The notes under the pieces were generated by a model. That model saw nothing but the letters and a program-made list of their open reading frames with translations. It had not been told where the DNA came from and did no database searches. The position numbers and the translations under genes were made by a program. This document shows positions 13,121 through 49,824 of a DNA stretch of 55,470 nucleotides, one piece after another. The first letter of the stretch is position 1; each line of letters starts with the position of its first letter. The DNA is from an uncultured Dehalococcoidales bacterium (lineage in GTDB: Bacteria > Chloroflexota > Dehalococcoidia > Dehalococcoidales > UBA2162): positions 8,006 through 63,475 of the forward strand of contig CAZSHH010000003.1 in the NCBI GenBank assembly GCA_964606525.1, written 5' to 3'.

Positions 13121-13138
13121 ACTAAGAAGAAATATCCT

Positions 13139-32919: not shown

Positions 32920-33273
32920 TACTCACTCCAGTTCTGTATTTAAAACATCTGTCACGAATAAATATTAACCGAATAACCAGCTATTATTGTAACCAGATGA
33001 CGAAGCTGAGTTAGTAAACGAACATGAGCTCCAGATAATAGCAAGCCGCAGCCCGGTTATCACCGGAAGATTTCACAGCAGCATGGATGCGGTTACTTAA
33101 CGGCGGTGGGCCACTGCTTATCGCTGCCGGGGAAAGCGCGGCGTCCTTGTCCAGGAATCTCCAGATACCGGAAAGTTCCATGTGGATGTGAGATAATCTG
33201 CGCGGAATCAAACGGCAACCACCTGAAATCTGAATCGTTACGATTGCCGAAAGACCGAAAATAACCCCCTTTG

Positions 33274-34245
33274 TTATATCAACTCAGTCTTTTCATCCTC
33301 GGTCAACCTCCAGCCGGCAGCTGCAACGTTTGCCGATACCTGTTCTGAACTGGTAGCTCCAGCAATCACCGAACTAAGCCACGGATGAGAGAGTAACCAT
33401 GATATCGCCAGTTCGCCCAAGCTCCGATTCCGTTCAGAAGCAAATGTCTGCAATTTCTCGATTTTATCGTAATTAATGTCCGATATTATTGGAGCAAACA
33501 TGGCGGGATTGGCTGTCATTCCGGGGAGAGACCGACGTGGCGGAGGAGCTGCTGATGAAGAGTTTAAACGGGTGCCCTGCGGTAACGGTTTCCCACGCTG
33601 GTATTTACCCGTTAAAAACCCTTCGGCTAAAGGTGACCATGGAATTACGCCTACTCCAAACTTTTCGCAACAGGGAACCAGTTCTGTCTCGATACTCCGG
33701 TTCAGTAAGTTATATCTTGTTTGTACTGCTGCGAACGACTCCAGGTTGTTGACTTTAGAGATCCACAATGCATCACAAAGCTGCCAGGCATTCAAGTTCG
33801 AACAAGCTGCGTAACGGATTTTCCCGGAATGTATAAGAATACCAAGTGTCCGCAGGGTTTCTTCAATCGGTGCGGTCGGATCAGGCCAGTGAAGATAATA
33901 AACATCCACATAATCTGTTGCCAGACGTTTTAAACTATTATTAATAGCCTCTATGATATGAGCCCGTGAACCACCGTAATCATTAGGAGACTCTCCAGTG
34001 GCAATACCGAACTTAGTGGCTATGATAACCCTGGAACGTTTGCCCTTTATAGCTCTACCTACATACTCTTCGGCACGACCATCGTTATATACATCTGCAG
34101 TATCGATAAAATTTATTCCCATATCCAGGGCATGGTCCATAATGGATATGGATTCCTTCTCACTTAACCTGCGGCCGAATTCCAGGGTGCCCAGTCCAAC
34201 TTCCGAGACTTTCAATCCAGACCTGCCAAGATTACGGTATTTCAT
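33274..34245 (-). CDS. aldo/keto reductase (second paralog)
   Basis: 323-aa ORF with SD AAAGGAGAA. Carries MKYRNLGRSGLKVSEVGLGT, MGINFIDTADVY and IIATKFG. Confidence 0.85.
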   Translation of the reverse strand: MKYRNLGRSGLKVSEVGLGTLEFGRRLSEKESISIMDHALDMGINFIDTADVYNDGRAEEYVGRAIKGKRSRVIIATKFGIATGESPNDYGGSRAHIIEAINNSLKRLATDYVDVYYLHWPDPTAPIEETLRTLGILIHSGKIRYAACSNLNAWQLCDALWISKVNNLESFAAVQTRYNLLNRSIETELVPCCEKFGVGVIPWSPLAEGFLTGKYQRGKPLPQGTRLNSSSAAPPPRRSLPGMTANPAMFAPIISDINYDKIEKLQTFASERNRSLGELAISWLLSHPWLSSVIAGATSSEQVSANVAAAGWRLTEDEKTELI

Positions 34246-34508
34246 ACTTTTCTCCTTTACAGGATGATTATGTTAGCTCTTCGAAATGGCGATGTGTGAC
34301 GACAATTCTCTCCGTGACTGGAGGAGTATTGATTACTATTATTGGTCTCAGATGAAGTTGTCGTCATTAAGAGTATCCGATAAACACACAATTATAGGCG
34401 ATGCCTTTAGTATCTCCTTGTGTCTTAACGCCCTTTCCTGGCTGGGCTGCATCTTCATCTCCGGAACGTTTTGATGGCGAAGCGAGATGTTCCAGGGCGT
34501 CCTTCTTT

Positions 34509-34868
34509 TTATCCGGATAATGTTCTATCGGAGATCGTACCCACCATCATCCCCACCTGGGTCAGTCTTGATCTATCGATTGATACTGCTAAGCTGAAAT
34601 CATTAACTTTTGCCATACCATCGGCACTGAGTATGACATTACCTGGTTTGATGTCCCGGTGGATGATGCCTTGGGCATGAGCAAACTCCAGGCCTTTACA
34701 GACGGACCTGGCGATTTCGATGGTCTTATCGATGGGCAGCTTATGGTCCTGGGCTTTATCGACATAATGATAATTTAGGCATACCAGTTCTATCTGAATG
34801 GGCTATCCACAATTTTTACAAAACCCGGTGTTGTCCCTGACGTCATCCTGGCAATGCGGGCATTTCAT
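34509..34868 (-). pseudogene. remnant of a zinc-ribbon Ser/Thr protein kinase
   Basis: SD GGGAGGG then MKCPHCQDDVRDNTGFCKNCG, an in-frame TAG (34803..34805), then kinase subdomains V-VII only (...FAHAQGIIHRDIKPGNVILSADGMAKVNDFSLA...), ending GTISDRTLSG*. There is no Gly-loop or VAIK N-lobe and no APE or C-lobe. Confidence 0.6.
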
Positions 34869-35346
34869 AATGAATGCCCTCCCACACACCTTAAAGTCTA
34901 TTCCAGAAGGATGACATAAGTCAAGAAATATGTGGTCTCTAAGAAAGGGAATTCGAATTCAATCTTGAAGCTGGTTTTTAGCCTGTGGAAGGAATCACGC
35001 CAGTTTCTGAGGTTAAATAAGGATTGGTAAAATCACGGTAACAATGAATTGCATTGGTGGTATTGCTTTGCGAACTAATGATGCTTATCATCAGTTACTC
35101 CAGCTTTCAAAATAAGTAATTTCCAATCAACCGCGATGTTGCCATCATGATAGATAAGGCAGCTCCAAGTCAGTCTTGCACAAACCGATATTGCTAAGCT
35201 AGTTATCATTTAGGTATACTTATAAGAATACTTATAGGAAATCACATATAGCAACCCAACGTTACTTTGTAAATCAAATCGGCAGACTAGTCAACGGCTA
35301 GAAGGATATATCCCGAGTAACTAGACTGTAACGAGGTAGGAAGCTA

Positions 35347-35625
35347 ATGGACGCGATTAGTCTGGATACGGGCAGGATTTCCGGGATAGAAGCAACTGAA
35401 AAAGGCCAGAAAATCCGTATCTTCATAGGTCTGGTTTCATAGCGGAGGTCTCAGGTGACGCATTTCGCCAGGACGGGTAATCCCAGCGTAAAAGGGCTTA
35501 TCGAGTGGCCTGCGTGGGAAAGTCAAAACGACCAATATCTGCTAATCACAGATCCCCTGCAAATAAAGCGGGGATTTTCCGAACTGACAAAGATAGTACT
35601 GGACAGGTCACAACAGGTGATATAG
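35347..35625 (+). pseudogene. deletion remnant of a type-B carboxylesterase
   Basis: N-terminal about 30 aa (MDAISLDTGRISGIEATEKGQKIRIFIGL, compare the intact paralog's ENGTVRGIQGTDARITVFKGIP), an in-frame TAG (35440..35442), then only the extreme C-terminus (HFARTGNPSVKGLIEWPAWESQNDQYLLITDP). The catalytic core with GxSxG is missing. Confidence 0.55.
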
Positions 35626-35689
35626 GAAGGGCACAGGGTACAACAAAAACAGCCGGTAACCTGTTCCGGATGGTGAATTGGAGGTTGAA

Positions 35690-38092
35690 ATGGAAAGAAT
35701 GTTAGCCAGAATCAAACGGGGAGGATTTCCTCTTTGTATCGAAAAAGCCCGCCTGATTACAGAAGCGGTTAAACAAACAGAAGGGGAAACCGGAGTTATA
35801 AGGTATGCCAAAGTTTACTCGCATATGCTGCAAAATATGCCTGTTTTAATCGATAAAGATGAGCTTTTCGTAGGCGAAGGGGCCAGCAAGCCATGGGGGG
35901 CTGAGATCGATCCCTTCCTGGGCGTATGGAAAGAGGAAGAAATCAGAGGAGCGGTTGAGGACGGGATTGTTTCGACTGAGGATATGGATTGGCCGATGTT
36001 GAGAGAATTGGGCAAATACTGGGAGACCAGGTGCTCGGAGTACATTCAAGCGAAAAGTATCAATGATAACATGTTCAAGTACCTGCAAGTTGGCATTACT
36101 CTGCCGCCGATGAAACAGAAAGATGAATTCAGAGGAGCATATGCCGGCAGCGGCCTTTGCCTGTCCTTCAATTTTACCGACTGCCATATGGACTTCGCCA
36201 GGTGGCTTGGTGGACTGAATCTGATCATTCGTGAAGCTGAAGAGGAAATCGAGAGAACAGGGTCACTCTCGCGAGATGATACTGAAAAGAAAGCCTTCCT
36301 TGAAGCATCAATCACGGTACTCAAATCAATCATTGCATTTGCCAACAGATATGCAGATGCAGCCGGGAAAATGGCTGAAAGGGAAAAGAACCCTCTGCGA
36401 AAAACAGAACTTGAGCGAATTGCCGAAGCCTGCCGATGGGTGCCAGCAAATTCACCCAGGAACTTCTTTCAGGCAATGCAATCTTTATGGTTCAACCAGA
36501 TATTATCGACACCAACTTCGACTCATAATCTCGGCAGATTCGATCAATATATGTATCCTTTCTATAAAAAGGACCGTGATGAAGGACGGATTTCCAACGA
36601 CGAAGTCCTGGCTCTGCTGTTTGAATTGCGTATCAAGTGCATGAAGCCTGAGAATATCAAGCTTTCAAGAGCCAAACGTTCCCAGCACGCCGGATACGCC
36701 AAATGGCGTAACATGACCATTGGCGGCGTTAACCCCGAGGGAGAAGACGCTACGAATGAATTGACCTATCTAGTATTAGAGGCAGCCAATAACCTCAGGA
36801 CACCTCATCACACTATTACCCTAAGAGTCCATGATGGGATCCCGGAGGACCTGCTGATCAAGGCATTGGAGGTCGTGAAGACCGGTATCGGAATGCCGGC
36901 GTTAGCCATTGACAAATCGTTTATTGACTATATGACCTCCGGAGGCATCCCTATCCAGGATGCACGCAATTACCACCTGGCCGGTTGTGTTGACCCGGCT
37001 ATTCCGGGAAAAACCAGCTTCCTGGCCGGTTTATTCTTTGTGGTTCCCAAGGTACTGGAGATTTTCTTGAATGACGGGTTAGACCCCCGCACCGGGTTGG
37101 AACTCGGGCCTTTCAAACCGAAGGTTGAAAACTACACGACATTTGATGAGTTTTACGATGCATTCCTGCAATTTCTTGCCTCTTTCATCAGAATATGGCA
37201 TGAGCACAGTTTTGTCACTCAGGGACGTTCTACAGAAATCCAGGGTTACCGCGATGTTGTAGATATACTGGAAACGGCTTTGATGCATAACGGAATGAAG
37301 GTGGGCAAACCATTGATGAGAAGGGTGCCGGAATTTCCTTTTGACTTCAGGGCGGTGATGGTACCCGTAGGCGGGATCAATGTAGCAGACTCACTGGCAG
37401 CGATCAAGAAACTGGTTTTCGACGAAAAAAAGATTACCATGACGCAACTTAAACAAGCGCTGGCTGCCAACTGGGAAGGTTATGAGAATATCAGAAAGAT
37501 ATGCCTTCAGGCTCCAAAATATGGGAATGATATCGATTATGTTGACTCGATCGCGAGAGAGTTATACAAATTCATCATCGACGAGGAGGCGAAACCTCTA
37601 TCGCCTGACCGTCCCACACGCGGAAGAATAAGAGGCATTGGCGGAGCATCCATATCATCGATGTTTGCCGGTGGGACAATAATCGGAGCAACGCCGGACG
37701 GAAGGTTAGCCGGCACTACTCTGTCCGACGGAACAGTGTCCCCTGCCCAGGGACAGGATACCCACGGTCCCACAGCAGTGCTCAGAAGCGCAGCCAAGAT
37801 CGACCAGTCCTTGTGTTCGTCTACACTGCTCAATATGAAGCTTCATCCATCATCACTGACAACCCGGGAAGATATAAAGAAACTGGGCAGTCTGATCATG
37901 GCATACGCTGACATGGGAGGGAAATGGATCCAGTTCAACGTTGTTGGAAACGAGCAGCTGCGGGAAGCTCAGAAATCTCCTGAGAATTATCGCGACTTGA
38001 TCGTGCGAGTAGCCGGCTATAGTGCCTATTTCGTAGACCTTGGCAAAGGGGTTCAGGACGACATTATCAGGCGCATGGAGGTGAGTGTCTAG
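35690..38092 (+). CDS. glycyl radical enzyme, PFL2/glycerol-dehydratase-like class, substrate unknown
   Basis: The ATG at 35690 lies 5 nt after TGGAGG; 800 aa. The C-terminal glycyl radical motif is LIVRVAGYSAYFVDL (Gly776, GGC at 38015..38017). The Cys loop is HLAGCVDPAIPG (Cys433, TGT at 36986..36988). The N-terminus IEKARLITEAVKQTEG...IDKDELFVGE is typical of this class. Confidence 0.9.
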   Translation: MERMLARIKRGGFPLCIEKARLITEAVKQTEGETGVIRYAKVYSHMLQNMPVLIDKDELFVGEGASKPWGAEIDPFLGVWKEEEIRGAVEDGIVSTEDMDWPMLRELGKYWETRCSEYIQAKSINDNMFKYLQVGITLPPMKQKDEFRGAYAGSGLCLSFNFTDCHMDFARWLGGLNLIIREAEEEIERTGSLSRDDTEKKAFLEASITVLKSIIAFANRYADAAGKMAEREKNPLRKTELERIAEACRWVPANSPRNFFQAMQSLWFNQILSTPTSTHNLGRFDQYMYPFYKKDRDEGRISNDEVLALLFELRIKCMKPENIKLSRAKRSQHAGYAKWRNMTIGGVNPEGEDATNELTYLVLEAANNLRTPHHTITLRVHDGIPEDLLIKALEVVKTGIGMPALAIDKSFIDYMTSGGIPIQDARNYHLAGCVDPAIPGKTSFLAGLFFVVPKVLEIFLNDGLDPRTGLELGPFKPKVENYTTFDEFYDAFLQFLASFIRIWHEHSFVTQGRSTEIQGYRDVVDILETALMHNGMKVGKPLMRRVPEFPFDFRAVMVPVGGINVADSLAAIKKLVFDEKKITMTQLKQALAANWEGYENIRKICLQAPKYGNDIDYVDSIARELYKFIIDEEAKPLSPDRPTRGRIRGIGGASISSMFAGGTIIGATPDGRLAGTTLSDGTVSPAQGQDTHGPTAVLRSAAKIDQSLCSSTLLNMKLHPSSLTTREDIKKLGSLIMAYADMGGKWIQFNVVGNEQLREAQKSPENYRDLIVRVAGYSAYFVDLGKGVQDDIIRRMEVSV

Positions 38093-38181
38093 ATAGCCGT
38101 GGTCTTCTCCAGGAAACTGGAAATATACGCGCAAGACCAGTCGAAACTCGATGTGCCGCATCCTGATATTGGGAGATGGTG

Positions 38182-39093
38182 ATGGTACAAGGAACAATTT
38201 TCGACATCCAGACCTATTCTCTGCATGATGGACCTGGCATCAGGACAACCGTCTTCCTTAAAGGCTGTCCCCTGAGTTGCGTCTGGTGTCAGAATCCGGA
38301 ATCTCAGCGTCGTCAGCCTGAATTACTATTCTATTGGGAGAGATGCACCGGCTGCGGCCAATGTGTGCCGGTGTGCCCCAGACAGGCTATCTCGGTGTCA
38401 GATGGAAGATCGCATACCAAGAGAAACCTCTGCGAAGGCTGCGGAAAATGCGCCGATACGTGTCTGAATACCGCCCGCATACTAAGCGGCAGAGTTTGGT
38501 CAGCAACCGACGTTTTTACCGAAGTTAAGAAAGATGACGCTTTCTACAGAAGAAGTGGCGGTGGAATTACCCTCTCCGGAGGAGAACCATTGACTCAGCC
38601 TGAATTCTCGACAGCTATCCTGTCGTTGTGCAAACGAGCCGGCCTGCACACTGCCATCGAGACAACAGGCATGGCCAAGTGGGAAACTCTTGAACAGGTA
38701 CTCGAATACGTCGACCTGGTATTGTATGACCTGAAACATATGGATTCCAGGTCTCATCAAAGGTGTACCGGCATAGGCAACGACCTTATTCTTGAGAACA
38801 TAAAGCAAATTCGAAGGAACTATACTATCCCGATAATAGCCCGAATACCGGTTATCCCAGGCTACAATGCAGACATGCAGAACATTAAAGCTACAGCAAG
38901 ATTCATTGTAAATGAAATAGGGCAAGATACAAAAGTGAACATTCTGGCTTATCACCGATTAGGAGAAAGTAAATACGACCGCCTCGAAAGAGATCAAAGT
39001 GGAGTGAACATCACTCCACCCACTGCAGGACAGATGGCAGCAATTCAGAAGACTATTGAAGCTCTGGGCCTGACAGTTACTATTGGCGTGTGA
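38182..39093 (+). CDS. glycyl-radical enzyme activating protein (radical SAM)
   Basis: GTIFDIQTYSLHDGPGIRTTVFLKGCPLSCVWCQNPE (CxxxCxxC), plus two ferredoxin-like clusters CTGCGQCVPVCP and CEGCGKCADTC. SD GGGAG abuts the first ATG (38176), so the ATG at 38182 is preferred. Confidence 0.9.
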   Translation: MVQGTIFDIQTYSLHDGPGIRTTVFLKGCPLSCVWCQNPESQRRQPELLFYWERCTGCGQCVPVCPRQAISVSDGRSHTKRNLCEGCGKCADTCLNTARILSGRVWSATDVFTEVKKDDAFYRRSGGGITLSGGEPLTQPEFSTAILSLCKRAGLHTAIETTGMAKWETLEQVLEYVDLVLYDLKHMDSRSHQRCTGIGNDLILENIKQIRRNYTIPIIARIPVIPGYNADMQNIKATARFIVNEIGQDTKVNILAYHRLGESKYDRLERDQSGVNITPPTAGQMAAIQKTIEALGLTVTIGV

Positions 39094-39208
39094 GAGACTG
39101 CCGGGAGGTGCCGAATACTGAATAATCCCATCTAAGAGTTCTGCCGGATGAAGAGGCAATTAAGCCTTGATGGGGCACCGAGATACAATTAAATTTGGGA
39201 GGTAGTAA

Positions 39209-39712
39209 ATGGCTGACAAATATGGACGGTTCTTCAAGGGTTACCAGGCGACACCGGAGGAAATTGAAAGAGGACGTACCGGCATCGCACGGGTAGATTA
39301 CAATACTTTCAAAGGCTGTAACTTCTACTGGGTGCACTGGAATTTACCTAACGCTCCCGGTCATTCCTCTCCCGATATGATCAGCGTAGGACACCCTCCT
39401 CACACCCACAAAGATGCGGAAATCCTGATGCTCATTGGGACCAACCCGGATGACCCTACAGACCTGGGTGCGGAAGTGGAACTACAGATGGGTGCCGAGC
39501 GGGAAAAACACATCATGACGAAGTCCACTGTGGTCTTTATTCCGGCGAATGTAATACATTGTCCCTATATTATCAGGAGGACAGACAGGCCGTGGATCTT
39601 TATAGAAATAAACCAGGGGCCGGTGCATACCGAAAAACTCTATCCGCAAATACTCACCGAAGAAGAAAGAAAACTGGTTGATTGGTCCCGATGGAAAGAA
39701 GAGGGTTATTAG
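39209..39712 (+). CDS. cupin-fold protein
   Basis: 167-aa ORF with SD GGGAGGT. Cupin motif 1 is GHPPHTHKDAEILMLIG (HxHxxxE) and motif 2 is VFIPANVIHCP. Confidence 0.55.
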   Translation: MADKYGRFFKGYQATPEEIERGRTGIARVDYNTFKGCNFYWVHWNLPNAPGHSSPDMISVGHPPHTHKDAEILMLIGTNPDDPTDLGAEVELQMGAEREKHIMTKSTVVFIPANVIHCPYIIRRTDRPWIFIEINQGPVHTEKLYPQILTEEERKLVDWSRWKEEGY

Positions 39713-39777
39713 CAAGTTTAGAGACATGACATTTCTAGTAGTCATAATTTAGTGTTGGCAAACGAAAAGGAGTTTAG

Positions 39778-41109
39778 ATGGCAAAGCAGAAATCAAGGGA
39801 AGAAATGCTGGTAGATGACCGGAAATTAAGGGATGAGATCCAGAAGAAACACGGTAAATCGGTTGAGGAGCTTTACCACGAGCGGGAAAAGAGACTGTAT
39901 GATGCCATTACGCTTAAAGTACCGGACAGAGTCCCGGTTCTCTTTTGCGGAACCTACCCGGCATGCAAATACAGCGGGGTACCGTTCTCGAGTGTTTATT
40001 ATGATGCTCCTGTCTGGAAAAGTGCGCTAAAAAGAATGCTGGTTGATTTTGCGCCCGATGGTTGGGGAAACCTGACATATGGACCAGGTACCGCCCTTGA
40101 TATTCTTGATTCCAATTACGAATGGCATCCCGGTGGTAGACTCCCCCCTGATGTACCCCACCAGATAAACGAACAGGAGTATATGAAAGAGGACGAGTAT
40201 GACCTCTTCCTTCTTGACCCTTCCGACTATATAATCCGGTACTGGATGCCGCGGGTAAATAACTCAATGAAGCCGCTGGCTAAACTCCCGCCCCTGAGAG
40301 AACTGGGCACAAACCCGTTATCTTTCGTTACACTCTTCGATGCACCGGAATTCGAGCAGTTTGCCGGGTTAATGAAAAAGGCCGCACAGGGAAAAAAGAA
40401 ATGGGACAAGGCCGTGGGAAATATTGAACAAGAGATGGCATCGATAGGTTTTCCGCCGGACCCATTCTGGCAGATGGGAGGGGGAGTCAACCCACCCTTC
40501 TCCGGTTTTTCCAACAGCTTCCGCGGCTTCAGGGGCGTGGGTATCGACATGTTCCGAAGGCCGGACAAGCTGAAAGCCGCTCTCAAGAAGTTCCTGGATT
40601 TCCGGATTTCCCAGGCAAAACCGGCAGTTCATCGGGATGGTAAGCCGGCAGTTGGCTCAGCTGGAGAATCGCATAGAGTGTCCGATGAATTTCTGTCAAC
40701 AAAGCAATTTGAGGAATTTGTCTGGCCCAACTGGAAGCGGGCTATTCAAACCACTTTCGATCTTGGATACGATGTTATCCGCATGTTTTTCGAGGGCAAG
40801 CGGGACAACCAGTTGGAGTATTTTACCGATTTTCCCAAAGGTACTTTCTATATCCGCCTTCAAGACACAAATATGGTTCGAGCCAAAGAAATTCTTGGTG
40901 ACGTGGCCTGCCTGTGCGGCAATGTACCTGTTTCATTACTCTGCACCGGATCACCCTCGGAGGTGGATGAATATTGTAAAAAACTGATACAGGCTTGCGG
41001 GAAGAACGGCGGCTTTATCCTGACCTCTTCAACGACCGGTTATGGGGAAACCAAACCGGAAAATGTAAAAGCGATGATAGATTCGGTTGAAAAATACGGC
41101 CGATACTAA
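39778..41109 (+). CDS. URO-D fold family protein (paralog of 15329..16573)
   Basis: 443-aa ORF with SD AAAGGAG. Shares blocks with the other paralog (EYMKxxEYDxFLxDPSD, MxRxPDKLxAA, STKQFxxFxWP). The C-terminus GKNGGFILTSSTTGYGETKPENVKAMIDSVEKYG is URO-D-like. Confidence 0.65.
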   Translation: MAKQKSREEMLVDDRKLRDEIQKKHGKSVEELYHEREKRLYDAITLKVPDRVPVLFCGTYPACKYSGVPFSSVYYDAPVWKSALKRMLVDFAPDGWGNLTYGPGTALDILDSNYEWHPGGRLPPDVPHQINEQEYMKEDEYDLFLLDPSDYIIRYWMPRVNNSMKPLAKLPPLRELGTNPLSFVTLFDAPEFEQFAGLMKKAAQGKKKWDKAVGNIEQEMASIGFPPDPFWQMGGGVNPPFSGFSNSFRGFRGVGIDMFRRPDKLKAALKKFLDFRISQAKPAVHRDGKPAVGSAGESHRVSDEFLSTKQFEEFVWPNWKRAIQTTFDLGYDVIRMFFEGKRDNQLEYFTDFPKGTFYIRLQDTNMVRAKEILGDVACLCGNVPVSLLCTGSPSEVDEYCKKLIQACGKNGGFILTSSTTGYGETKPENVKAMIDSVEKYGRY

Positions 41110-41280
41110 GCGTGACTTTGCTATCTTGATAAAGTTGAAAATCTGCTGAAATCCTGAAACGGTTTTACAGGATAAGAAAATATTTAAGATAGAGAAAAGT
41201 TCTGCCAGGTTAACCCGGTAATAACCGGGGTTAGCGGCAGGACCAGCTCTCATTTTTACTTGGAACAGGAGGTAGTTCAG

Positions 41281-42816
41281 ATGCTTCGCATCACCAAGAC
41301 GGAAAACGGAACGGTTCGGGGGATTCAAGGCACTGACGCCAGGATCACGGTCTTCAAAGGAATACCCTTCGCGGCTCCGCCTGTGGGAGATCTGCGCTGG
41401 AGGGCTCCCAAACCGGCCGCTGACTGGACAGGCGTCCGCACCTGTCTGGAGTTCATGCCCATAGCCATGCAGCGCGCTCCGGGCTCAAACTTGAATACCG
41501 GGGCTTTCTATGCCAAAGAATGGCACGTCGACCCGGATGTGCCGATGGATGAAGACTGCCTGTATCTGAACGTCTGGACCAATTCCATGACGGGCAAGGA
41601 AAAGATGCCCGTCATGATCTGGATCTATGGTGGAGGCCTGATGGAGGGCTATCCGTGGGAAATGGAGTTCGACGGTGAGCGCATTGCCAGCCGCAGCGTC
41701 ATCCTGGTCTCCATCAACTACCGTCTGAACGTCTTCGGGTTTTTGACTCATCCGGAAATAATCAAGACTGCTCCTGATGGCTTCGTGGCGAACTTTGGCT
41801 ACCTGGACCAGAAGGCCGGCATCGATTGGGTCCACCGCAACATTGCCAATTTCGGCGGCGACCCGAATAATATCACCATTTTCGGGCAATCGGCGGGGGG
41901 CGGCAGCGTAATGTCCCATTTAAATTCGCCTCTGGCCAAAGGAGCCTTCCAAAAAGCCATTGTGCAGTCCGGCGGCGGCGTGCGCATCAGGGAACCGTCG
42001 CTCCGGATGATGATGATGGGCTCCAGTCTTCAAGCCCTGGCGAAACAGGGCGAGGCTTTCTTCGACTTTGTCGGAGCGAAGAACCTCGCCGCGGCCAAGG
42101 CCATCGATGCCAAGAGACTGTTGGCCAAACATCTTGAATTCAACAAATACTGGAGCGCCACAGTAGACGGTAAATATGTAGTTGAAGAAGCAGCAGCCAG
42201 TGTGCTGGCGGGCCGTCAACACGATATTCCAGTCATGATAGGCTCGACCATAAATGAATTCCTGATGACTCCGCCCGATGACCACATTGACGCCTGGGCG
42301 AAGGAGAACATTTCGGGGATTGCCACCGAATTCTGCAAACTGGCCCGGGATAGGGCTGCGGCTGAAGGCATCAGTCTCAAGCAGGCGGCTGCAGTCAACA
42401 CTACTGAGCTTACCGCCAAACTGTTCTGCAAAACGGTGGCCGCGCAGGGTAAACAGCCGGTTTTCAGCTATTCTTTCGGTCCGCAAATACCGGGGGATAA
42501 TGCCGGCGCTTTTCACTCCTCCGATCTCTGGTTCGAGTTTGAAACGCTGATGAGGTGTTGGCGGCCGTTCGTTGGTAAACACTTCGACCTGGCGCGCCAG
42601 ATGTGCAACTATTGGACGAACTTCGCCAAGAATGGCGACCCCAACGGGCTTGATGCCGACGGCACACCCATGCCGAGATGGACGCCGTATACCGTTAAAT
42701 CCCCGCTGGCAATGCAATTCTTCGAAAAGCCGGCCATGGAGAAAAAGCAGAACAAAATGACGAAGTTGTTGCTTGACTACAATAAAAAGCTGATAAAGGG
42801 GGAGACTTCACGATAA
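41281..42816 (+). CDS. type-B carboxylesterase (para-nitrobenzyl esterase-like)
   Basis: The ATG at 41281 follows AGGAGG. Carries GTVRGIQG...FKGIPFAAPPVGDLRW, EDCLYLNVW, the nucleophile elbow IFGQSAGG and C-terminal NYWTNFAKNGDPN. Confidence 0.85.
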   Translation: MLRITKTENGTVRGIQGTDARITVFKGIPFAAPPVGDLRWRAPKPAADWTGVRTCLEFMPIAMQRAPGSNLNTGAFYAKEWHVDPDVPMDEDCLYLNVWTNSMTGKEKMPVMIWIYGGGLMEGYPWEMEFDGERIASRSVILVSINYRLNVFGFLTHPEIIKTAPDGFVANFGYLDQKAGIDWVHRNIANFGGDPNNITIFGQSAGGGSVMSHLNSPLAKGAFQKAIVQSGGGVRIREPSLRMMMMGSSLQALAKQGEAFFDFVGAKNLAAAKAIDAKRLLAKHLEFNKYWSATVDGKYVVEEAAASVLAGRQHDIPVMIGSTINEFLMTPPDDHIDAWAKENISGIATEFCKLARDRAAAEGISLKQAAAVNTTELTAKLFCKTVAAQGKQPVFSYSFGPQIPGDNAGAFHSSDLWFEFETLMRCWRPFVGKHFDLARQMCNYWTNFAKNGDPNGLDADGTPMPRWTPYTVKSPLAMQFFEKPAMEKKQNKMTKLLLDYNKKLIKGETSR

Positions 42817-42874
42817 CACCACCCCGATATAACAAGAACACTATCAGCAACCCATTATTCAGTAGTAAATAATA

Positions 42875-43660
42875 TTACGAGTGATCTTCGAGCCATTTCG
42901 CAAGATCACTAAATACCTGAGGTCTCTCCGGTTCATTAAAAATTTCGTGACGCAACCCTTCGTATAATTTGAGCGTCTTGTCTTTCGACCCCAAAGCCTC
43001 GAATAAGACTTGACTTCGCGCACCATCAGTAACGCCATTTCCCGCCATTATAAGTACCGGCAGCCGGATTAGCGGAACCGCGTCGGTGACTCCTCCCATC
43101 ATTCCACTCAGTCTTGGCGGAATCGGACCGTGATATACAAGAGGATCATTTACGTAAGCTTCGATTACTGCCGGATCCCGGCTTAAAAAGGCAGTAGGCA
43201 GCGGCTGCCCCTCAGGTTGCCGGGGTGCAGGCGGTTCATTACCACGACTAATACCTCCGCCTGAAGTAATCAAGCCGGCCAGTTCTTTTTGGTATTTCGC
43301 GGTATAAAGTAGTGCAATGGCGGAACCCATACTGTGTCCGACTAAAAATATCAGTTTCCCGGGATTATCTTTGCGGATAATATCGAAAAATATTTTTAAG
43401 TCATCGACATAATCAGAAAACTTTTCAACGTAAACACGTTCGCCGTCGGATTTACCATGTCCACGGTGATCCATGGCATATACCGCATAGTCTTGGGAAA
43501 CAAAATATTCAGCCACGTGGTTATAACGCCCGCTGTGCTCGGCAAATCCGTGTGCAATCAGTATTATTGCCTTTGGTCCGTCTGAAGGCAGCCAGTATTG
43601 ATAGTAAATATTTATGTTTCCCGGATTTTTAAAAAAACCCTCTTTGTGCATCGCATCCAT
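42875..43660 (-). CDS. alpha/beta hydrolase (lysophospholipase / monoacylglycerol-lipase-like)
   Basis: 261-aa ORF with SD CGGAGGG. Carries HGFAEHSGRY, the nucleophile elbow LVGHSMGS and a C-terminal H in GLRHEIFNE. Confidence 0.8.
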   Translation of the reverse strand: MDAMHKEGFFKNPGNINIYYQYWLPSDGPKAIILIAHGFAEHSGRYNHVAEYFVSQDYAVYAMDHRGHGKSDGERVYVEKFSDYVDDLKIFFDIIRKDNPGKLIFLVGHSMGSAIALLYTAKYQKELAGLITSGGGISRGNEPPAPRQPEGQPLPTAFLSRDPAVIEAYVNDPLVYHGPIPPRLSGMMGGVTDAVPLIRLPVLIMAGNGVTDGARSQVLFEALGSKDKTLKLYEGLRHEIFNEPERPQVFSDLAKWLEDHS

Positions 43661-43807
43661 TATGTTTAGCCCTCCGGTTCTTCAATGAATATGGTTATCT
43701 CCTAATGCTCGAATAACTATGGTATGTTTTTTGACATTTTTCAAGTGCAGTCTGAAACAACCGGGGGGACGAATGCATGTCCCGTAACGATTGAATACTC
43801 GCTGCTT

Positions 43808-44221
43808 TCACGAAAGATTTTCCTTAATTACTTCGACAATTCCCTTGGTGGCGTCCATCTTTACAAAGTCCCCTGTCGTGATTATTTCAAGCGGGTTGCC
43901 ATCAAGTTTATGCACCATCGGAATGTCATTCATAATCGCTACCATTGCCATCACCGGTTCCACTTCAAGACAAATCATACCTATCGGGGCATTGCCCAGT
44001 TGTTTGGCTTGATATGCAACATTCGGTCCAACCGTAGAACCTTTTCCTGTTGAGAAGACGAATATTTTACCAGCGATACTCTGGCCTTCAATATCGTGTC
44101 CTTTGGGGATAACCTTGCCGGTATTTACATCCAGATCCCCCAGGAATGAAAAGGGTCTTTGTGAGACTATTGCTACGCCTTCCACCTTTCCTTTCTTGAC
44201 TGTTTTCCCCTTTAGTATCAT
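43808..44221 (-). CDS. aconitase X swivel-domain subunit (DUF126)
   Basis: 137-aa ORF. GKVEGVAIVSQRPFSFLGDLDVNTGKVI...GQSIAGKIFVFSTGKGSTVG matches the AcnX small subunit pattern. Its SD lies within the end of the upstream gene. Confidence 0.75.
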   Translation of the reverse strand: MILKGKTVKKGKVEGVAIVSQRPFSFLGDLDVNTGKVIPKGHDIEGQSIAGKIFVFSTGKGSTVGPNVAYQAKQLGNAPIGMICLEVEPVMAMVAIMNDIPMVHKLDGNPLEIITTGDFVKMDATKGIVEVIKENLS

Positions 44222-44225
44222 ATTC

Positions 44226-45461
44226 TTACCCTCTCCATTTACCGGTTAAAGCCGCATTGATACAGTCTGTAGTACTTCCGTATTGAATACCGATCCCGCG
44301 CCTGGACTGGTAAGAGGCAGCTCTTGCTGAATTAGTTGCTGCAGTAGAAACCGGCCATGCCAGTTGCTCGTATGGAAAACTCTGGATACATATTCCTGTA
44401 GCGACGACTCCGCCGGCACTTTCGATGATATCTATATATCCGGTAGTTTTAGCCAGAGTGTATGTCTGCTCTGAGGTTGCGGTAAATAGCCGAACATTAT
44501 CAGCGATTCTTTTTCCCTCAAGTAACTGTGCTAATTCTTTTAACTCCCGGATACTCAGATGGGGACAGCCGAAAAAGACCAGTTCGATGTCATCCCTTCT
44601 GGCAGTGTGAAGGCTTTGCCAGGCTTCTTTAATTTCGTGCATCCCGACCTTGATCATCATTTCAGGTTTTTTATTGCCAACTGCTTGTTCCAGGGTCGGG
44701 GCTTCGGGGGTAACCCCAATGATATGACATATGGCGACCGCCCCTGAGACTGGTTGAGGAGAAAGGAAAAACTTCAAGTGGTCGAAAGAGATGTTACCCG
44801 GGATCCCATCAACCACTACGTTCTTTGTCTCGGCCATCCCGCCGATGTAGTAACCAACCGCTCCGTAATCGGCTTCGGAAAAAATTTCCATATCAAGGCC
44901 TTCCATTTCAACCACAATTTGCCCGTATCGGTTCTCGTTTTTCAACAGCAGCATCTCGGGCGTCACTCCGGTAATCGCACTAGCCATGGAAGCCGGCATC
45001 GAATCACGATTGCCTTTTGCACCAAATACTGAGTTGCCGATGATGATACCCGAAGATCCCGGCCACGAAAAAACCCGCCCCGGAATTGGTACATTGCCTA
45101 CCAGATAAGGAGTACAAGTCATCGCCGGTAAAAATCCTTTTGGAATACAAAAACCCATGGTTTCCGCTTGGATCCTGGTTTGATTCTCACAATAGTCTGC
45201 TTTTAACCCCATTGCCCTGGCTGCTTTACAGGCACCGGTCATTCCGGCATGAGTAGTTGTGAACGTTCGTAATTGACCCACACCGTCCAATATCTGGTGC
45301 AGCCATTCTCCCGCCATAAGCCCGGTATGGGCATTATGCACCCTGACCATCTTCGGTGCATCGAATGCCTCACCGTATTCTACAAGCATGGTCATGGCTT
45401 TTTGAACACCTGGGCCATATTCACCCTGGTACATTCGCTTCTCGTCATCGGTCAAAAACAT
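44226..45461 (-). CDS. aconitase X catalytic subunit (DUF521)
   Basis: 411-aa ORF with SD CGGAGGG. The N-terminus MFLTDDEKRMYQGEYGPGVQKAMTMLVEYGEAFDAPKMVRVHNAHTG is typical of the DUF521/AcnX large subunit. Confidence 0.75.
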   Translation of the reverse strand: MFLTDDEKRMYQGEYGPGVQKAMTMLVEYGEAFDAPKMVRVHNAHTGLMAGEWLHQILDGVGQLRTFTTTHAGMTGACKAARAMGLKADYCENQTRIQAETMGFCIPKGFLPAMTCTPYLVGNVPIPGRVFSWPGSSGIIIGNSVFGAKGNRDSMPASMASAITGVTPEMLLLKNENRYGQIVVEMEGLDMEIFSEADYGAVGYYIGGMAETKNVVVDGIPGNISFDHLKFFLSPQPVSGAVAICHIIGVTPEAPTLEQAVGNKKPEMMIKVGMHEIKEAWQSLHTARRDDIELVFFGCPHLSIRELKELAQLLEGKRIADNVRLFTATSEQTYTLAKTTGYIDIIESAGGVVATGICIQSFPYEQLAWPVSTAATNSARAASYQSRRGIGIQYGSTTDCINAALTGKWRG

Positions 45462-45912
45462 TGAGACCCTCCGGTATTTGTGGCAATTTGCACTAACAAA
45501 CTTTAACTATCGATCAAAGCAGGAAACAACCAAATCAATCTGAAAGTCGGCTATGTGGATGCCGAAAAGAAATCATTGCTGTCCCGTACTACCATCGGTA
45601 TCACCCGAGTTCAATTTATTCTTATCATGGATGATTGTCAATTATGAACAAACACTGTGTAGTTCGCCTAATAGTAAGAAGGGGGCATCTCCAATGTCGG
45701 TGGTACTAACTTAACAAGTGGTACAACTATCGGGGGCAGGTCACTATGTCATCATCAGGAACTTCCCATGCGTATCTAGGTGCTCCAAGCATGATTTTTT
45801 CATCACTTGTCGAATACGTACCACAAAAACAATCACTTAAGAATAGATACTCCTTCATGACTTTACGCAACGAATCCGGGGTTGCTTCGATGGATATCGC
45901 TCGCCGTTGTAT

Positions 45913-46719
45913 TTATTGATCGCCCTGGCGAGGTAAGCCCATAGGTAGTCCAAATATGATATTTTGCCCACTCATGTGGTCGGAAGCTGATGATACCAAG
46001 AACAAAACCGCCTCCGCGAGTTCTTCGGGCATCGCCATACCCGTCATGTCGACCGGCACATTACCCCCTTCTTGGCGTACTTTTTCCATTGCCGCCTGTC
46101 TCCCTTCGCTCCAGGTAGCGCTGGGGGTGACGCAGTTAGCCTGTATCCCAAAGGGCGCGACCTCTCTGGCGAGAGCCTTGACGAAGCCGATTACCCCGGC
46201 CTTGGCGGCGGTGTAGTCGGAATTGCCCGCTAACCCGTCTATGGCAGCGATTGAAGACAAGAGTACGATCTTGCCTGTTCGCCTTTCTATCATGTGGTTA
46301 ATAACAGCCCGAACGCAATGCCGCGGCCCGTTCAGGTTCATATCCATCATCCAGTCCCAGAGTTCTTTAGTCTGCTCGGCAACTGGAGCTCCTCTGACCG
46401 GCAGTCCCCCGGTGAGATTGGTCGGTAGCAACGTCCCCACGATGCCGCCGGCGGCGTTGACCAGTATATCTATCTGGCGGTATTTCTGTAGAGTAGTTTT
46501 GACCATCTCGTTGACCTGGTCTTCATACCTGAAATCTACTTTTACTGCGTATGCTTCGTCCCCGGTAGCCTTGATGGCATCAGCAACTTTGTTGGCATTG
46601 GCGATGACCACGTCGGCTATCACTACTTTAGCTCCTTCCCGCGCCAGGAGTGTGGCCGATGCCCGGCCGACGCCGCTGGCGCCACCAACCACAATGGCAA
46701 CTTTGCCTTCGAGTTTCAT
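45913..46719 (-). CDS. SDR family oxidoreductase
   Basis: 268-aa ORF with SD AGAGAGGTGA. Carries GKVAIVVGGASGVGRA (TGxxxGxG type), NAAG and the catalytic YTAAKAG. Confidence 0.85.
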   Translation of the reverse strand: MKLEGKVAIVVGGASGVGRASATLLAREGAKVVIADVVIANANKVADAIKATGDEAYAVKVDFRYEDQVNEMVKTTLQKYRQIDILVNAAGGIVGTLLPTNLTGGLPVRGAPVAEQTKELWDWMMDMNLNGPRHCVRAVINHMIERRTGKIVLLSSIAAIDGLAGNSDYTAAKAGVIGFVKALAREVAPFGIQANCVTPSATWSEGRQAAMEKVRQEGGNVPVDMTGMAMPEELAEAVLFLVSSASDHMSGQNIIFGLPMGLPRQGDQ

Positions 46720-46759
46720 GAGGTCACCTCTCTTATAAGCGTTAACTAATGAAGACAGA

Positions 46760-47719
46760 CTATTGCCGGGCGATCGGCTTCAGCGGAATTTTCGGATCCG
46801 GGAAGCCCGAGCCCATAAGGGCGAACATCATGGTCAGTGCCCTGTCATCGATGCGCTGGAAGTCTTCCCGATGAACGGTCTCAGGTCTGGGGAAAGGCCA
46901 GTCCATTTGCAATAGCGCCTGCTGCACGGTCACCCCTGAGCCATGCAGTTCTCTGGCGCGCGTAATACAGTAAGCCAATGCCGCCCCGCCATCCTCCGGC
47001 GGGATCATGCCGTCATACCCGGGCATGCTATGCCAGGGTGCTGTCGGCTTTGGTTCCCCGGCAGGCCGCCTGCCGCTGAGAGGAAAACTGACACCGGCAG
47101 GTATAAAGCAGAAGACTGCCACGCCGGTATCATCGACGGTTCCTATTTCGTACGCCAGGGACATCATGATGGAAGTAGTGGCTGACTTGGCGGCACAATA
47201 ATTGGCCGGTCCCGGAGGGTCCATGAAAGCAGTGGCCGTGTAGGCGACCACTCCATGATGTCTATTCAGCATCGCGGGTACGAACAGTTGGATGCCGATA
47301 AGCGTACCGCGGGCTGATATTTCATACTGGCGGTCGAGTTGCTTGATCGTAGACTCGAGAATGGGCGCCCCCATGGACATATCCATGGCATTACTCACAT
47401 AGATATCTACCTTGCCAAAAGTATCAATCGCCCGGCGTGCCATCGATTTCATCGAGTCTTCGTCAGACACATCGGTCTCTATAAACAGCGCAGTGCCCGG
47501 CTGGTTCTCATTGTTGATGATTTCTGCGGCGGCTCTACCCCGGTCCGGTGAGAATTCAGCAATGATTAACTTCGCTCCTAACCAGGCCAGGCTCCTTGCC
47601 GTGCCAAGTCCAACATTCCCGCCGGCGCCAGTGACAACGGCGACCTCGCCTGCCAGCATACCCTTATTAAGCTTTGTCTTGTCCATCGCCAGCGGGCCCA
47701 CAGCAAGCTCTTTAACCAT
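46760..47719 (-). CDS. SDR family oxidoreductase (extended C-terminus)
   Basis: 319-aa ORF with SD AAAGGAGGA. Carries EVAVVTGAGGNVGLGTA, SNAM and the catalytic YCAAKSA. Confidence 0.75.
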   Translation of the reverse strand: MVKELAVGPLAMDKTKLNKGMLAGEVAVVTGAGGNVGLGTARSLAWLGAKLIIAEFSPDRGRAAAEIINNENQPGTALFIETDVSDEDSMKSMARRAIDTFGKVDIYVSNAMDMSMGAPILESTIKQLDRQYEISARGTLIGIQLFVPAMLNRHHGVVAYTATAFMDPPGPANYCAAKSATTSIMMSLAYEIGTVDDTGVAVFCFIPAGVSFPLSGRRPAGEPKPTAPWHSMPGYDGMIPPEDGGAALAYCITRARELHGSGVTVQQALLQMDWPFPRPETVHREDFQRIDDRALTMMFALMGSGFPDPKIPLKPIARQ

Positions 47720-47745
47720 CGTAGTCCTCCTTTAACAGCGCATGA

Positions 47746-49446
47746 TCACGGAAGAATATTCCCGGGTAGTCCACAGGTGCCATCGCGACAGTCCATCGGC
47801 GATGGCATTCGGAGAGGTCTGGCATCCTTCTTAACGCCGGCCTTCGGTATCCACGGGTCGATGGATAAGGTACGGACGTAGTGAAAGTCCGTCGTCATCC
47901 AGAACGGATTCCATTCGCCACCGACGACGATAAAGTTAAGGCCCTCAGCCGTCAGGGGGCGCATTCTTCTGGTGCCATCGTTCTTCCCATGCTCTGCCAG
48001 GTAAGAGGCCAGCTTCAATTTAGTGTCGAAACCCTCGTTCTTGAGATTCTTCGCCGCGAGCGGATCGACGATGAAGGTGGCCCCGCCCAGTCCGAGTGAT
48101 TTGATAATCTGGGCCATGCGGTCGGCATGTCCGTCGCCAAAGCCGATTACGGTCCAACCCATGAATAAGGAGACCGTGTTTTCGCTCGCCTTAAAACCAT
48201 GCTGGACGTGCAGCGGTTCCCAGACACTCAGTTCTTCATTCTCACCGCAGCACATGTTATTGTAGTTAACACCGTTGCCGGTGGTCGCAGTAAAATTCTC
48301 GCCAATCTTGGCGCCGGCAAGGTTAATGCTCATCAATGTCCACGTTCGGCCCAGGACCGAGTTGGCATAATTAAATGGACTGAGGGCACCCGAACTGCAA
48401 TTCATGCCGATCTCATTACGGATGGGCCCGTTAACGACCATCATGCTGATGAAAGAAGTCGTCGAGCTGGGCATTGACGCCTGTTTGGAAGCTGCCACAG
48501 CCAGCAGCACCGGCAGGTGTTCCGGCCGGCATCCTGCCATGACCGCATTGACGGCGACTTTCTCAACCGTATACTCGAACCGTTCCTCGTGAGTCGTGAC
48601 TGCCATCCGCCCCACCACCTCTTGCGGATCGTGGTCGGTACCAGTCAGCATCTCCGCCACACGCTCCTCGGTTGGCAGCACGATAGGCAGGCCATCCGTC
48701 CACGCATTCTCCAGGAAAAGCCGGTGCAGGTTGTCCTCGGTGTCCGGCGGCAGAAGCCGGTTGTGCTTCGGCCGTTTCACAATTATCGGGTTTCTCTCTT
48801 CTTCAGTGAGGGGCCGGGTCAGGGCATCGACGATCTCCTGCATAAGGGGACGGCCGGTAATCGGGTCCTCTTTATCGATGTAGCCGTGCAGCACATCCCG
48901 TGGTACGAAGGCCACCGGATGCGGTGGATAGCAGAAGCGCAACATCATACCGTGTGCCTGGCCGTTTAACATGATGAAGTCGGCGAATCGGGACGTGACC
49001 ATCGGAGCCGTCGGTACGCCGCGGTCCTCCAGATTGCGAGCGAATTCGGCGAGACTCGCCGAACAGCCGTCTCAACCACCAACCCCAAGGACGGCAACGG
49101 CACCTTTCGCTGCTATCTCGTCCCAAAGCGCGGGATCGTTGGTGAACATGCCACCCTGCTTACGCCGCAGTTCCGTTTTTAGAGAAGGCATGTTGCGGGA
49201 GAACCAGTCATGCACTTCCTGCATGAATTCCCAGGCGCCGGCGAAACCGGTCTCGACCAGATAGACGGTTTTCCCCTCAATGCTCCCGGAGCGGGGAGCC
49301 ATGTGGACAGGCCGGACTTCGCCTGTCGGCTGCGTGTACGGGTCCTGGATATTGAGACCTGACTCTGGCGTCAGACTCTGCCCGAACACTCCGCTCGGTT
49401 GCCCCCTGGGGTCTAACACGTTAAGTAAGGCCTTGCTGTTTTTCAT
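47746..49446 (-). CDS. two-domain selenoprotein, U-D-G-C motif (in-frame TGA at 49072..49074 read as Sec125); 566 aa; paralog of 20656..22257
   Basis: Track ORFs 49072..49446 and 47746..49002 are in the same frame: ...AVLGVGG-U-DGC-SASLAEFARNLEDRGVPTAPMVTSRFADF... The strong SD GAGGAGGAG lies only before the ATG at 49446. The C-terminal domain is homologous to the paralog (WTDGLPI, VEKxAVNAVMAGC, VNGP). Confidence 0.7.
49045..49063 (-). promoter_or_regulatory. candidate bacterial SECIS hairpin
   Basis: On the mRNA, 8 nt after the UGA, lies a perfect 19-nt palindrome UUCGGCGAG-U-CUCGCCGAA. It forms a 7-8 bp stem with apical loop (A)GUC(U). Confidence 0.45.
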
Positions 49447-49485
49447 TTCTCTCCTCCTCGTTCGGGTCTAACTATTCCTGCGACA

Positions 49486-49824
49486 TCACCGCCAATCATC
49501 GTTACTGAAGAGTCCCTGGGAGGAATAGGAACAGGGCCCACCGGTAATCTGCATATAGACTTCCTCATCAGAGCCACAGACAATGATACAGTTTTCGTCC
49601 GGTCGGTCTCCAGCGACGGATATCATATAGTCATCTGGCAGTTCCTTCCACGGCTTGCCCGATTGCCGGTCTATTCCGGTCCAACCGTTGGTGTGAAGAT
49701 CAACCCATGAGCGCTTGCGGTATTCGCTTAGCGGTTCAAGCCCTTTCTTCCAGATGTACTCGTAGACATCAGCTTTAGACTTGAAACCGAGTTTATATAG
49801 GTGCTGGGCCATTTCGTGAACCAT
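49486..49824 (-). CDS. hypothetical protein
   Basis: 112-aa ORF 39 nt upstream of the selenoprotein gene. It has no recognisable motif and weak SD. Its 5' end is ambiguous (see the frameshift finding). Confidence 0.4.
   Translation of the reverse strand: MVHEMAQHLYKLGFKSKADVYEYIWKKGLEPLSEYRKRSWVDLHTNGWTGIDRQSGKPWKELPDDYMISVAGDRPDENCIIVCGSDEEVYMQITGGPCSYSSQGLFSNDDWR

Follow-up and report, generated by a model that had tools for sequence, protein, structure and literature searches.

The discovery of glycyl radical enzymes (GREs) has time and again brought key anaerobic reactions to light, among them those of choline, hydroxyproline, isethionate and hydrocarbons. According to a 2026 review, six C-O eliminases, CutC, the C-S lyases and three isomerases all keep a Cys-x-Glu (CXE) motif, and the glutamate hydrogen-bonds the substrate hydroxyl in the eliminases and isomerases (PMC13450708); the decarboxylases HPAD and IAD use this glutamate too. 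The same review points out that whole GRE clades, archaeal ones especially, are still without an assigned function (PMC13450708). We analyzed a 55,470-nucleotide stretch of DNA from an uncultured Dehalococcoidales bacterium (contig CAZSHH010000003.1, positions 8,006 to 63,475 of the forward strand; hereafter the window, numbered from its first letter), in which five plus-strand genes at 35690-42816 encode an oxygen-sensitive GRE, its activase, a cupin of 167 aa, a URO-D-fold protein of 443 aa and a type-B carboxylesterase. Our preferred reading, to which we give a probability of roughly 40%, is that the locus holds a GRE of an uncharacterised PFL2 clade together with its own activase, and that the substrate of this clade comes from ester hydrolysis. 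The enzyme family and its radical machinery are of a well-known kind, unlike the motif, the clade and the gene partners. Our literature search, which also covered GREs in these lineages and GREs with PrpD, CapA or URO-D, found no description of the GRE clade, of a Cys-x-Asp GRE or of a GRE-esterase system.

A PFL2-type GRE clade with a Cys-x-Asp loop

The GRE open reading frame (ORF) spans 35678-38092 (+). Its likely start, ATG 35690, is preceded by GGAGG and gives 800 aa, the same as in the homologues, compared with 804 aa from TTG 35678; residue numbers used here are those of the 804-aa ORF (minus 4 for the ATG start). Pfam, NCBIfam and PDB searches together with the homologues assign the protein to the PFL2 type. 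Both the barrel and the glycine-radical domain of the superfamily were detected (PFL-like, PF02901, E 2e-146; Gly_radical, PF01228, E 2e-29), the translation contains the glycyl motif RVAGYSAYF with Gly780, and Cys437 aligns with Cys433 of glycerol dehydratase (GDH). The activase gene (38176..39093, +) encodes a radical SAM protein with Radical_SAM and Fer4 domains that scored 364 bits against TIGR02494 (cut-off 174). One CX3CX2C motif (CPLSCVWC) and two ferredoxin-like CX2CX2CX3C motifs (CTGCGQCVPVC and CEGCGKCADTC) account for three clusters, two of them auxiliary. An activase adjoins the GRE in 13 clade loci. The GRE has every part required for glycyl-radical catalysis, namely the Gly780 loop, Cys437 and the adjoining three-cluster activase. 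The 800-aa PFL2-class GRE with RVAGYSAYF and the 3-cluster radical-SAM activase that an initial annotation of this DNA had proposed are both borne out by these domains and motifs.

The initial annotation had also found the gene set unlike any characterised GRE system, a view that would have fallen had the enzyme grouped tightly with a characterised GRE clade. No such grouping was observed. Every NCBIfam equivalog cut-off of the characterised GREs was missed: HpsG (516 bits, cut-off 1000), IAD (483, cut-off 1100), CutC (464, cut-off 1050), HypD (441, cut-off 1100), HpfG (403, cut-off 1000), HPAD (368, cut-off 1150) and PFL (TIGR01255; 95, cut-off 994). The PFL2-3 subfamily model was missed as well (528 bits, cut-off 678). 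The best solved relative in a PDB sequence search was GDH at 437 bits and only 33.7% identity, and active-site residues differ between the two. In the same ranking GDH, CutC and PD reached 413-437 bits, X-succinate synthases 275-301, HPAD 260 and PFL 80, so that by sequence the GRE is closer to the eliminases than to other GRE classes. An identity as PFL was rejected on the TIGR01255 score and on the single cysteine, there being no adjacent Cys-Cys pair.

Single-cysteine PFL-like genes of sediment metagenome-assembled genomes are often annotated as alkyl- or benzylsuccinate synthase (e.g. PMC8163825), and on the criteria used there, one catalytic cysteine and two additional clusters in the activase, the GRE could be read as an enzyme of this kind that adds hydrocarbons to fumarate. 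Such criteria fit all PFL2-type GREs. MasD (301 bits) and TutD (275 bits) scored below all eliminases, against 437 bits for GDH, no ORFs for small beta or gamma subunits flank the GRE, and no succinyl-CoA-type beta-oxidation genes are conserved beside it. We rejected the identity as an X-succinate synthase on the scores and the missing subunits, and consider hydrocarbon addition extremely improbable. Routine database names such as 'formate C-acetyltransferase' and 'alkylsuccinate synthase' for genes of this type need caution.

The GRE belongs to a clade that is sharply set apart in sequence identity, with members at least 66% identical to it and the next relatives at no more than 59%. Database searches returned more than 120 clusters (at 90% identity) that are 61-90% identical to the GRE. 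Among 185,579 species genomes there is one match group at 68-90% identity and, after a gap, relatives at 59% and 39-49%. The hosts of the 68-90% group are Chloroflexota/Dehalococcoidia, Acidobacteriota and Desulfatiglans- and Syntrophus-like Deltaproteobacteria, and Bathyarchaeia members of the clade are 66% identical. Metagenomes of bioreactors, manure, wastewater, digesters, wetlands and soil contain DNA near-identical to that of the locus.

The cysteine loop of the GRE reads GCVDP (Cys437, Asp439) and lacks the Cys-x-Glu of eliminases and isomerases such as GD, PD, CutC, HypD, IslA, HpsG, HplG and YbiW. Of 148 sequences at least 60% identical to the GRE, about 146 have GC[VLI]DP, and all of the 145 aligned clade sequences carry the aspartate. 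Cys-x-Asp is also found in most relatives at 40-59% identity, including those of gut and rumen Firmicutes (GCVDG). Among the solved proteins most similar in the Cys-loop segment, AAD alone departs from CXE, with Cys-Val-Leu. The alignment with GDH places replacements at His164, Ser282, Glu435, Asp447 and Tyr640; in the clade, Asp447 corresponds to Ala450, Ser448 to Gly451 and Tyr640 to Ala657. The diol-binding residues of glycerol and propanediol dehydratases (His164, Ser282 and Asp447) were thus not recovered, the partner of His164 being ambiguous owing to a clade-specific six-residue insertion. This insertion lies near GDH His164 and is followed by Asp168, which is near-invariant (96% of clade sequences). 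GDH Tyr339 corresponds to Trp343, next to which stands the clade-invariant Arg344; sister groups have His, Asn or Tyr there. Both Arg344 and Asp168 fall in segments that align with substrate-contacting residues of GDH. A CutC-like reading, in which Asp168 would match CutC Asp216 and the substrate would be a quaternary amine such as carnitine, was considered and is kept only as a lead, since the HMMER alignment puts CutC Asp216 opposite a glycine and not opposite Asp168.

Cys-x-Asp was also seen in uncharacterised GREs of loci L031-L086 (39-49% identical), often present as two or three tandem paralogues. Their hosts include gut and rumen Lachnospiraceae, Oscillospiraceae and Blautia, in which the loop reads GCVDG.

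These scores and residues also bear on a second alternative, that the GRE decarboxylates an aromatic or aliphatic carboxylic acid set free from esters such as the hydroxycinnamate esters of plant walls. The IAD model is the third-best NCBIfam match, AAD shows that neither a small subunit nor CXE is needed for such chemistry, and the small residues Ala657, Ala450 and Gly451 suggest a more spacious pocket, with Arg344 as a possible partner of a carboxylate. Yet the IAD and HPAD cut-offs were missed widely (483 of 1100 and 368 of 1150 bits), HPAD with 260 bits ranks near the bottom of the PDB matches, no small ORF lies beside the GRE, and with Cys-x-Asp the enzyme is without the glutamates of HPAD and IAD. 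The remaining evidence on this alternative comes from the esterases and the URO-D-fold protein and is taken up with them.

Ester hydrolases beside the GRE clade

The GRE is in clade-specific genomic association with ester hydrolases. The ORFs of 28 non-redundant clade loci and 24 sister loci were predicted and grouped into clusters, after which we annotated representatives and mapped the gene order. An esterase-type gene lies within 3 kb of the GRE in 18 of the 28 clade loci, as against 7 of 55 others (4/24 sister loci and 3/31 more distant ones). The clade-specific esterase-type neighbours form eight groups, which are alpha/beta hydrolases wherever a Pfam family was found: for five, Pfam or a direct scan gave the family (COesterase, PF00756 esterase, PETase-like, CocE/NonD S15 and Hydrolase_4), and two further groups were judged to be alpha/beta hydrolases from their sequences only. 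COesterases occur in 12 clade loci and PF00756 esterases in 8, with PETase-like and S15 proteins in several; several of these neighbours carry signal peptides. A COesterase gene stands directly upstream of the GRE or of an activase-GRE pair in L001, L007, L008, L018, L023, L026, L029 and L088-L090. The association spans Chloroflexota, Acidobacteriota and Deltaproteobacteria and reaches down to 68% GRE identity.

In the window itself this upstream partner has been lost. What is left of a type-B carboxylesterase gene is a remnant at 35341..35622 (+) with about 31 N-terminal and 55 C-terminal codons. When the upstream esterases of L001, L007, L026, L008, L018, L029 and L051 were used in tblastn searches, only 35341-35433 and 35458-35622 matched, with the deletion junction at 35430-35456. 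Locus L089, with 96% DNA identity over 33160-45684 and the same gene order, retains an intact upstream esterase; 1185 bp of it (L089 3015-4199) are missing from the window, which corresponds to a deletion inside the gene. Because contigs of a bioreactor run and a manure run from two independent studies cross the junction without differences, the deletion is real and no assembly error. A bioreactor Logan contig is 100% identical over 34877-38153, and this stretch has therefore been assembled independently. The conserved esterase partner is not the downstream carboxylesterase listed in the initial annotation: it lies upstream and is the gene deleted here.

The downstream gene (41260..42816, +) encodes an intact type-B carboxylesterase with a full-length PF00135 match (residues 11-499, E 1e-94) and a GQSAG nucleophile motif. 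Among solved proteins, fumonisin B1 esterase, pNB esterase and CES-type enzymes come nearest, each with about 200 bits, and Pfam gave a BD-FAE match as well. It is only 29% identical to the conserved upstream type (compared with L001), of which it is a paralogue. Next to it, and convergent with the cluster, lies a gene for a Hydrolase_4 alpha/beta hydrolase (S33, monoacylglycerol-lipase-like by Pfam; 42875..43660, -). Homologues 56-58% identical to the latter are found 4-5 kb from a clade GRE in L012 and L028, another (67%) adjoins a cupin in L094, and the gene may belong to the same ester theme. In L013, a GH51-like alpha-L-arabinofuranosidase with a carbohydrate-binding module (4164-6197) sits beside two esterases upstream of a clade GRE, which hints at ester-substituted plant hemicellulose as a source of substrate there.

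Under our preferred reading, the esterase would free a small polar compound from an ester, probably a hydroxylated one with an anionic group that would be bound by Arg344. The activated GRE would abstract a hydrogen atom via a Cys437 thiyl radical, with Asp439 acting as the base in place of the usual glutamate, and a 1,2-elimination or rearrangement would yield a carbonyl product that would pass on to dehydrogenases or reductases. A bolder idea, that Cys-x-Asp GREs and the esterase-linked clade especially catalyse a reaction class new to GREs, we hold to be rather unlikely. Such a class could be the radical cleavage of a C-O or C-C bond in a carboxylated alcohol, or in an acid freed from ester-linked organic matter, and would open to anaerobes of digesters, wetlands and sediments a dedicated route to ester-bound carbon.

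Several points weigh against an ester-derived substrate and the chemistry proposed for it. The Fisher test on the esterase counts (p = 3e-6) overstates the support because the loci are not phylogenetically independent. Ten of the 28 clade loci, including Bathyarchaeia, have no esterase within 3 kb, some of the contigs being short, and the genomes of the clade's hosts are esterase-rich. The GRE may not depend on the upstream esterase at all, since in the window that esterase is dead and the GRE intact. No aldehyde-processing gene is a conserved neighbour of the GRE. Arg344 and Asp168 were assigned by sequence alignment, and the whole pocket assignment is provisional because two aligners disagree by two residues near His283 and across the six-residue insertion beside Asp168. 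Finally, loss of CXE alone is no pointer to eliminase chemistry, as the decarboxylase AAD is without that glutamate too.

Cupin, URO-D-fold protein and the variable flank

As the initial annotation had claimed, the five genes lie in one same-strand set, separated by 65-150 bp, with a convergent gene next. Synteny bears this set out in part: the link with esterases is clade-specific, and the five genes do not form a conserved unit. In L001, the GRE of which is 90% identical, an RNase II-like gene comes directly after the cupin, and its counterpart in the window is at 54962-55470. The intervening 39713-54961 (about 15 kb) is therefore an insertion relative to L001, where the corresponding gap is 14026-14783. 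The insertion carries the URO-D gene, the downstream esterase, the Hydrolase_4 gene, a two-subunit AcnX, two short-chain dehydrogenases/reductases (SDRs) and a UGSC-like gene. The URO-D gene and the downstream esterase of the window accompany a GRE only in relatives at least 95% identical (L089 and L090; the esterase itself in L089). The second carboxylesterase, the cupin and the URO-D-fold gene are lineage-specific additions.

The 167-aa protein (39209..39712, +) belongs to an unnamed family, has no signal peptide and gave no Pfam or NCBIfam match. H65, H67, E71 and H117 are invariant in 47 sequences, and an AlphaFold2 (AF2) model (pLDDT 86.7) matched small metal cupins in Foldseek with probability 1.0, among them MarH, an iron epimerase/lyase, oxalate oxidase and quercetinase. 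The predicted two-motif His/His/Glu...His metal site on the modelled beta-barrel marks the protein as a small metal-binding cupin, the identity that the initial annotation had given it. Co-occurrence with the GRE is a different matter. Downstream of the activase, the cupin gene is confined to loci with GREs at least 90% identical (L001/L009, L007, L088-L091). In a reverse test on 80 metagenome loci found with the cupin profile, no GRE was present in any of the about 27 loci that span at least 6 kb and have a cupin less than 92% identical; the cupins of GRE-free loci stand in tandem and near CoA-transferases, SBP_bac_5, UGSC-like and URO-D-fold genes. A Tat-signal homologue, 36% identical over 74 residues, is directly upstream of the GRE in five Desulfatiglans-type loci.

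The URO-D-fold protein (39778..41109, +) is a member of a large Chloroflexota paralogue family of the UroD superfamily with more than 2000 clusters. PF01208 covers only residues 240-440 of its 443, and the AF2 model (pLDDT 90.6) matched the MtaA and UroD structures over the full length, in line with the fold first claimed for it. In the Foldseek search of the PDB, MtaA and UroD had similar scores, and the 50 matches listed did not include CdmB. With HemE it shares the fold alone (TIGR01464, 18.6 bits against a cut-off of 303). CdmB (9rui) was the only PDB sequence match (E 2.4e-36, mainly over residues 213-443), and the MtaA and CmuA models gave 32-34 bits (cut-offs 235-244). In a corrinoid-dependent chloromethane system, CdmB serves as methyltransferase I (MTI), and it groups with O-demethylase MTIs in the UroD superfamily (PMC13222342). 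On these matches the URO-D-fold protein looks closest to MTI-type methyltransferases and not to HemE. A search for a corrinoid protein or methyltransferase II (MTII) gene found none in the window and none beside three close URO-D homologues.

URO-D-fold genes stand beside a GRE in 5 of 52 loci, L022 and L026 of the clade and L033, L035 and L059 of the sister clade, in every case within 1 kb although the flanks reach 10 kb; in the three sister-clade loci they are directly upstream of the GRE. Three close homologues of the window gene, 77-83% identical, lie in other contexts with no GRE nearby, and the co-occurrence of the window's own gene is confined to relatives at least 95% identical. A second URO-D-fold gene of the window, at 15329-16573 within 10961-18666 (-), is embedded among three SBP_bac_5 lipoprotein genes and is 48% identical to the GRE-adjacent one in L059.

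Were the GRE a decarboxylase, the URO-D-fold protein could be an O-demethylase-type methyltransferase, or a decarboxylase, acting on the same aromatic pool. Its relation to CdmB and the O-demethylase MTIs would suit this role, as would the BD-FAE match of the window esterase, the GH51-like gene in L013 and the old yellow enzyme (OYE) and FAD reductases in L026 and L008; the missing corrinoid protein and MTII gene and the sporadic URO-D linkage, by contrast, speak against it. The analogy between URO-D enzymes and arylacetate decarboxylases that the initial annotation had suggested is likewise weak, given the HemE score, CdmB as the sole solved relative and a GRE without the HPAD/IAD glutamate. 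We judge decarboxylation of this kind improbable.

The variable flank raises a further alternative, that the neighbours are a chance set in a variable catabolic island, and that GRE and activase are the sole functional unit and act on a small substrate unrelated to esters. This would explain why the stretch from the cupin end at 39712 to 54962 is absent in L001, why cupin and URO-D homologues turn up in GRE-free contexts and why the conserved esterase could be deleted here; same-family copies also lie far from the GRE in the window (the second URO-D gene, two UGSC-like and three SBP_bac_5 genes). It fits less well with an esterase that directly adjoins the GRE or activase on the same strand in three phyla and at GRE identities as low as 68%, with the closeness of all five URO-D occurrences to a GRE, and with the presence of two divergent cupin lineages that both adjoin clade GREs. 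A chance neighbourhood seems to us a doubtful account, and we retain the ester-derived substrate as the preferred one.

Among the other neighbours, a UGSC-family selenoprotein gene with an in-frame TGA stands next to a clade GRE in 9-13 loci (e.g. L024, TGA at about 7775). The window has two UGSC-family genes, at 20656-22260 (-) with TGA 21937-21939 and at 47746-49446 (-) with TGA 49072-49074; in both, the TGA falls within the motif, as D-U-G-S-C and G-U-D-G-C respectively. The predicted products are selenoproteins of about 530-570 aa whose C-terminal domain is uncharacterised. A clade-specific secreted 312-aa protein of an unnamed family ('unk312') was found in 11 loci. For 'unk312', the UGSC C-terminal domain and the 167-aa protein, Pfam/NCBIfam and PDB sequence searches gave nothing useful. 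In the seven Desulfatiglans-type loci (L012, L019, L020, L021, L024, L028 and L030), no activase lies next to the GRE and the secreted 312-aa protein is encoded downstream in all; L019, L020 and L030 have an EFR1-type flavodoxin/ferredoxin fusion and an MFS transporter upstream of the GRE.

The GRE is preceded, at a distance of 7.5 kb, by three tandem aldehyde dehydrogenase (ALDH) genes (23614-28151, +; 510, 485 and 485 aa), which might process aldehyde products but are not conserved beside the GRE elsewhere. The window also encodes two aldo-keto reductases, one divergent from the cluster and one 25 kb upstream, and two SDRs. Elsewhere in the clade, an ALDH gene is directly upstream of the GRE in L015, and genes for an FAD oxidoreductase and an OYE are downstream in L026 and L008. 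These carbonyl-handling genes speak for our preferred reading.

A Pfam scan of 43 ORFs of the window revealed no bacterial microcompartment (BMC) shell gene, small GRE subunit or corrinoid protein, and a B12-binding motif scan of all six frames of the window found none. No transporter is encoded inside the cluster, and three SBP_bac_5 genes are located 17-25 kb upstream. The absence of shell genes, small subunits and an in-cluster transporter noted in the initial annotation is thereby upheld. Promoter and terminator scans gave counts equal to those of shuffled sequence, and the operon structure is accordingly deduced from strand and spacing only. Rfam gave no riboswitch match, and a search for RNA runs holding the locus found none. 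The otherwise non-coding 1.1 kb between the aldo-keto reductase gene and the esterase remnant contains a fragment (34512-34760, -) with the protein-kinase catalytic-loop motif HRDIKPGN, 37% identical to a 987-aa protein of L022, and this too is probably what is left of a gene.

Significance and comparison with known systems

The clade is large, its hosts (Dehalococcoidia, Acidobacteriota, Desulfatiglans-like bacteria and Bathyarchaeia) are abundant uncultured lineages, and it departs from the characterised GREs at a residue taken as catalytic. Ester-splitting enzymes are the only neighbours of the GRE that recur consistently across several phyla, which makes the cluster a promising lead to a new anaerobic breakdown reaction; the adjoining esterases offer a handle for substrate discovery, since candidate substrates could be generated with them.

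Among the close systems are the uncharacterised Cys-x-Asp GREs at 40-59% identity from Anaerolineae, Acidobacteriota, Syntrophus and gut and rumen Firmicutes. These share the W-x-N and GRFDQYMYPFY motifs with the clade but are without its Arg344, Asp168 and Ala657, and have PGA_cap, MmgE/PrpD, CoA-transferase and TRAP neighbours rather than esterases. In the sister-clade blocks of L005, L014, L031, L034, L036, L040 and L043-L050, genes for PGA_cap (CapA-like), MmgE/PrpD and family III CoA-transferase proteins are found together with 2-hydroxyacyl-CoA-dehydratase-like genes, a GntR regulator and TRAP transporters, a composition that suggests organic-acid substrates for these GREs.

The arylacetate decarboxylases HPAD, IAD, PAD and AAD are PFL2-type GREs too; IAD, PAD and AAD work without small subunits, and AAD without the CXE glutamate. 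Their loops read C-x-E or C-V-L, whereas that of the window GRE is C-V-D and its scores are far below their cut-offs. The URO-D-fold protein resembles CdmB in length (443 and 429 aa) and in the UroD-type TIM barrel with N-terminal extensions. The CdmB system differs in that no corrinoid protein, MTII or reductive activase gene lies near the URO-D gene of the window or near three close homologues.

B12-independent GDH (Clostridium butyricum, 1r8w), PD, CutC, HypD, IslA/IseG and HpsG have the same fold and length as the window GRE and matched it at 355-437 bits. Shared between these eliminases and the GRE are the Gly loop RVAGYSA, a single cysteine in a G-C-x-acid-P loop and an activase with two auxiliary clusters. 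The sulfonate-binding Arg and Gln of IseG align with Cys and Asn in the window GRE, and where the eliminases carry the glutamate of CXE, the window GRE has an aspartate. Eliminase loci contain aldehyde dehydrogenase and BMC shell genes, whereas the GRE clade, which has no microcompartment, is accompanied by esterases.

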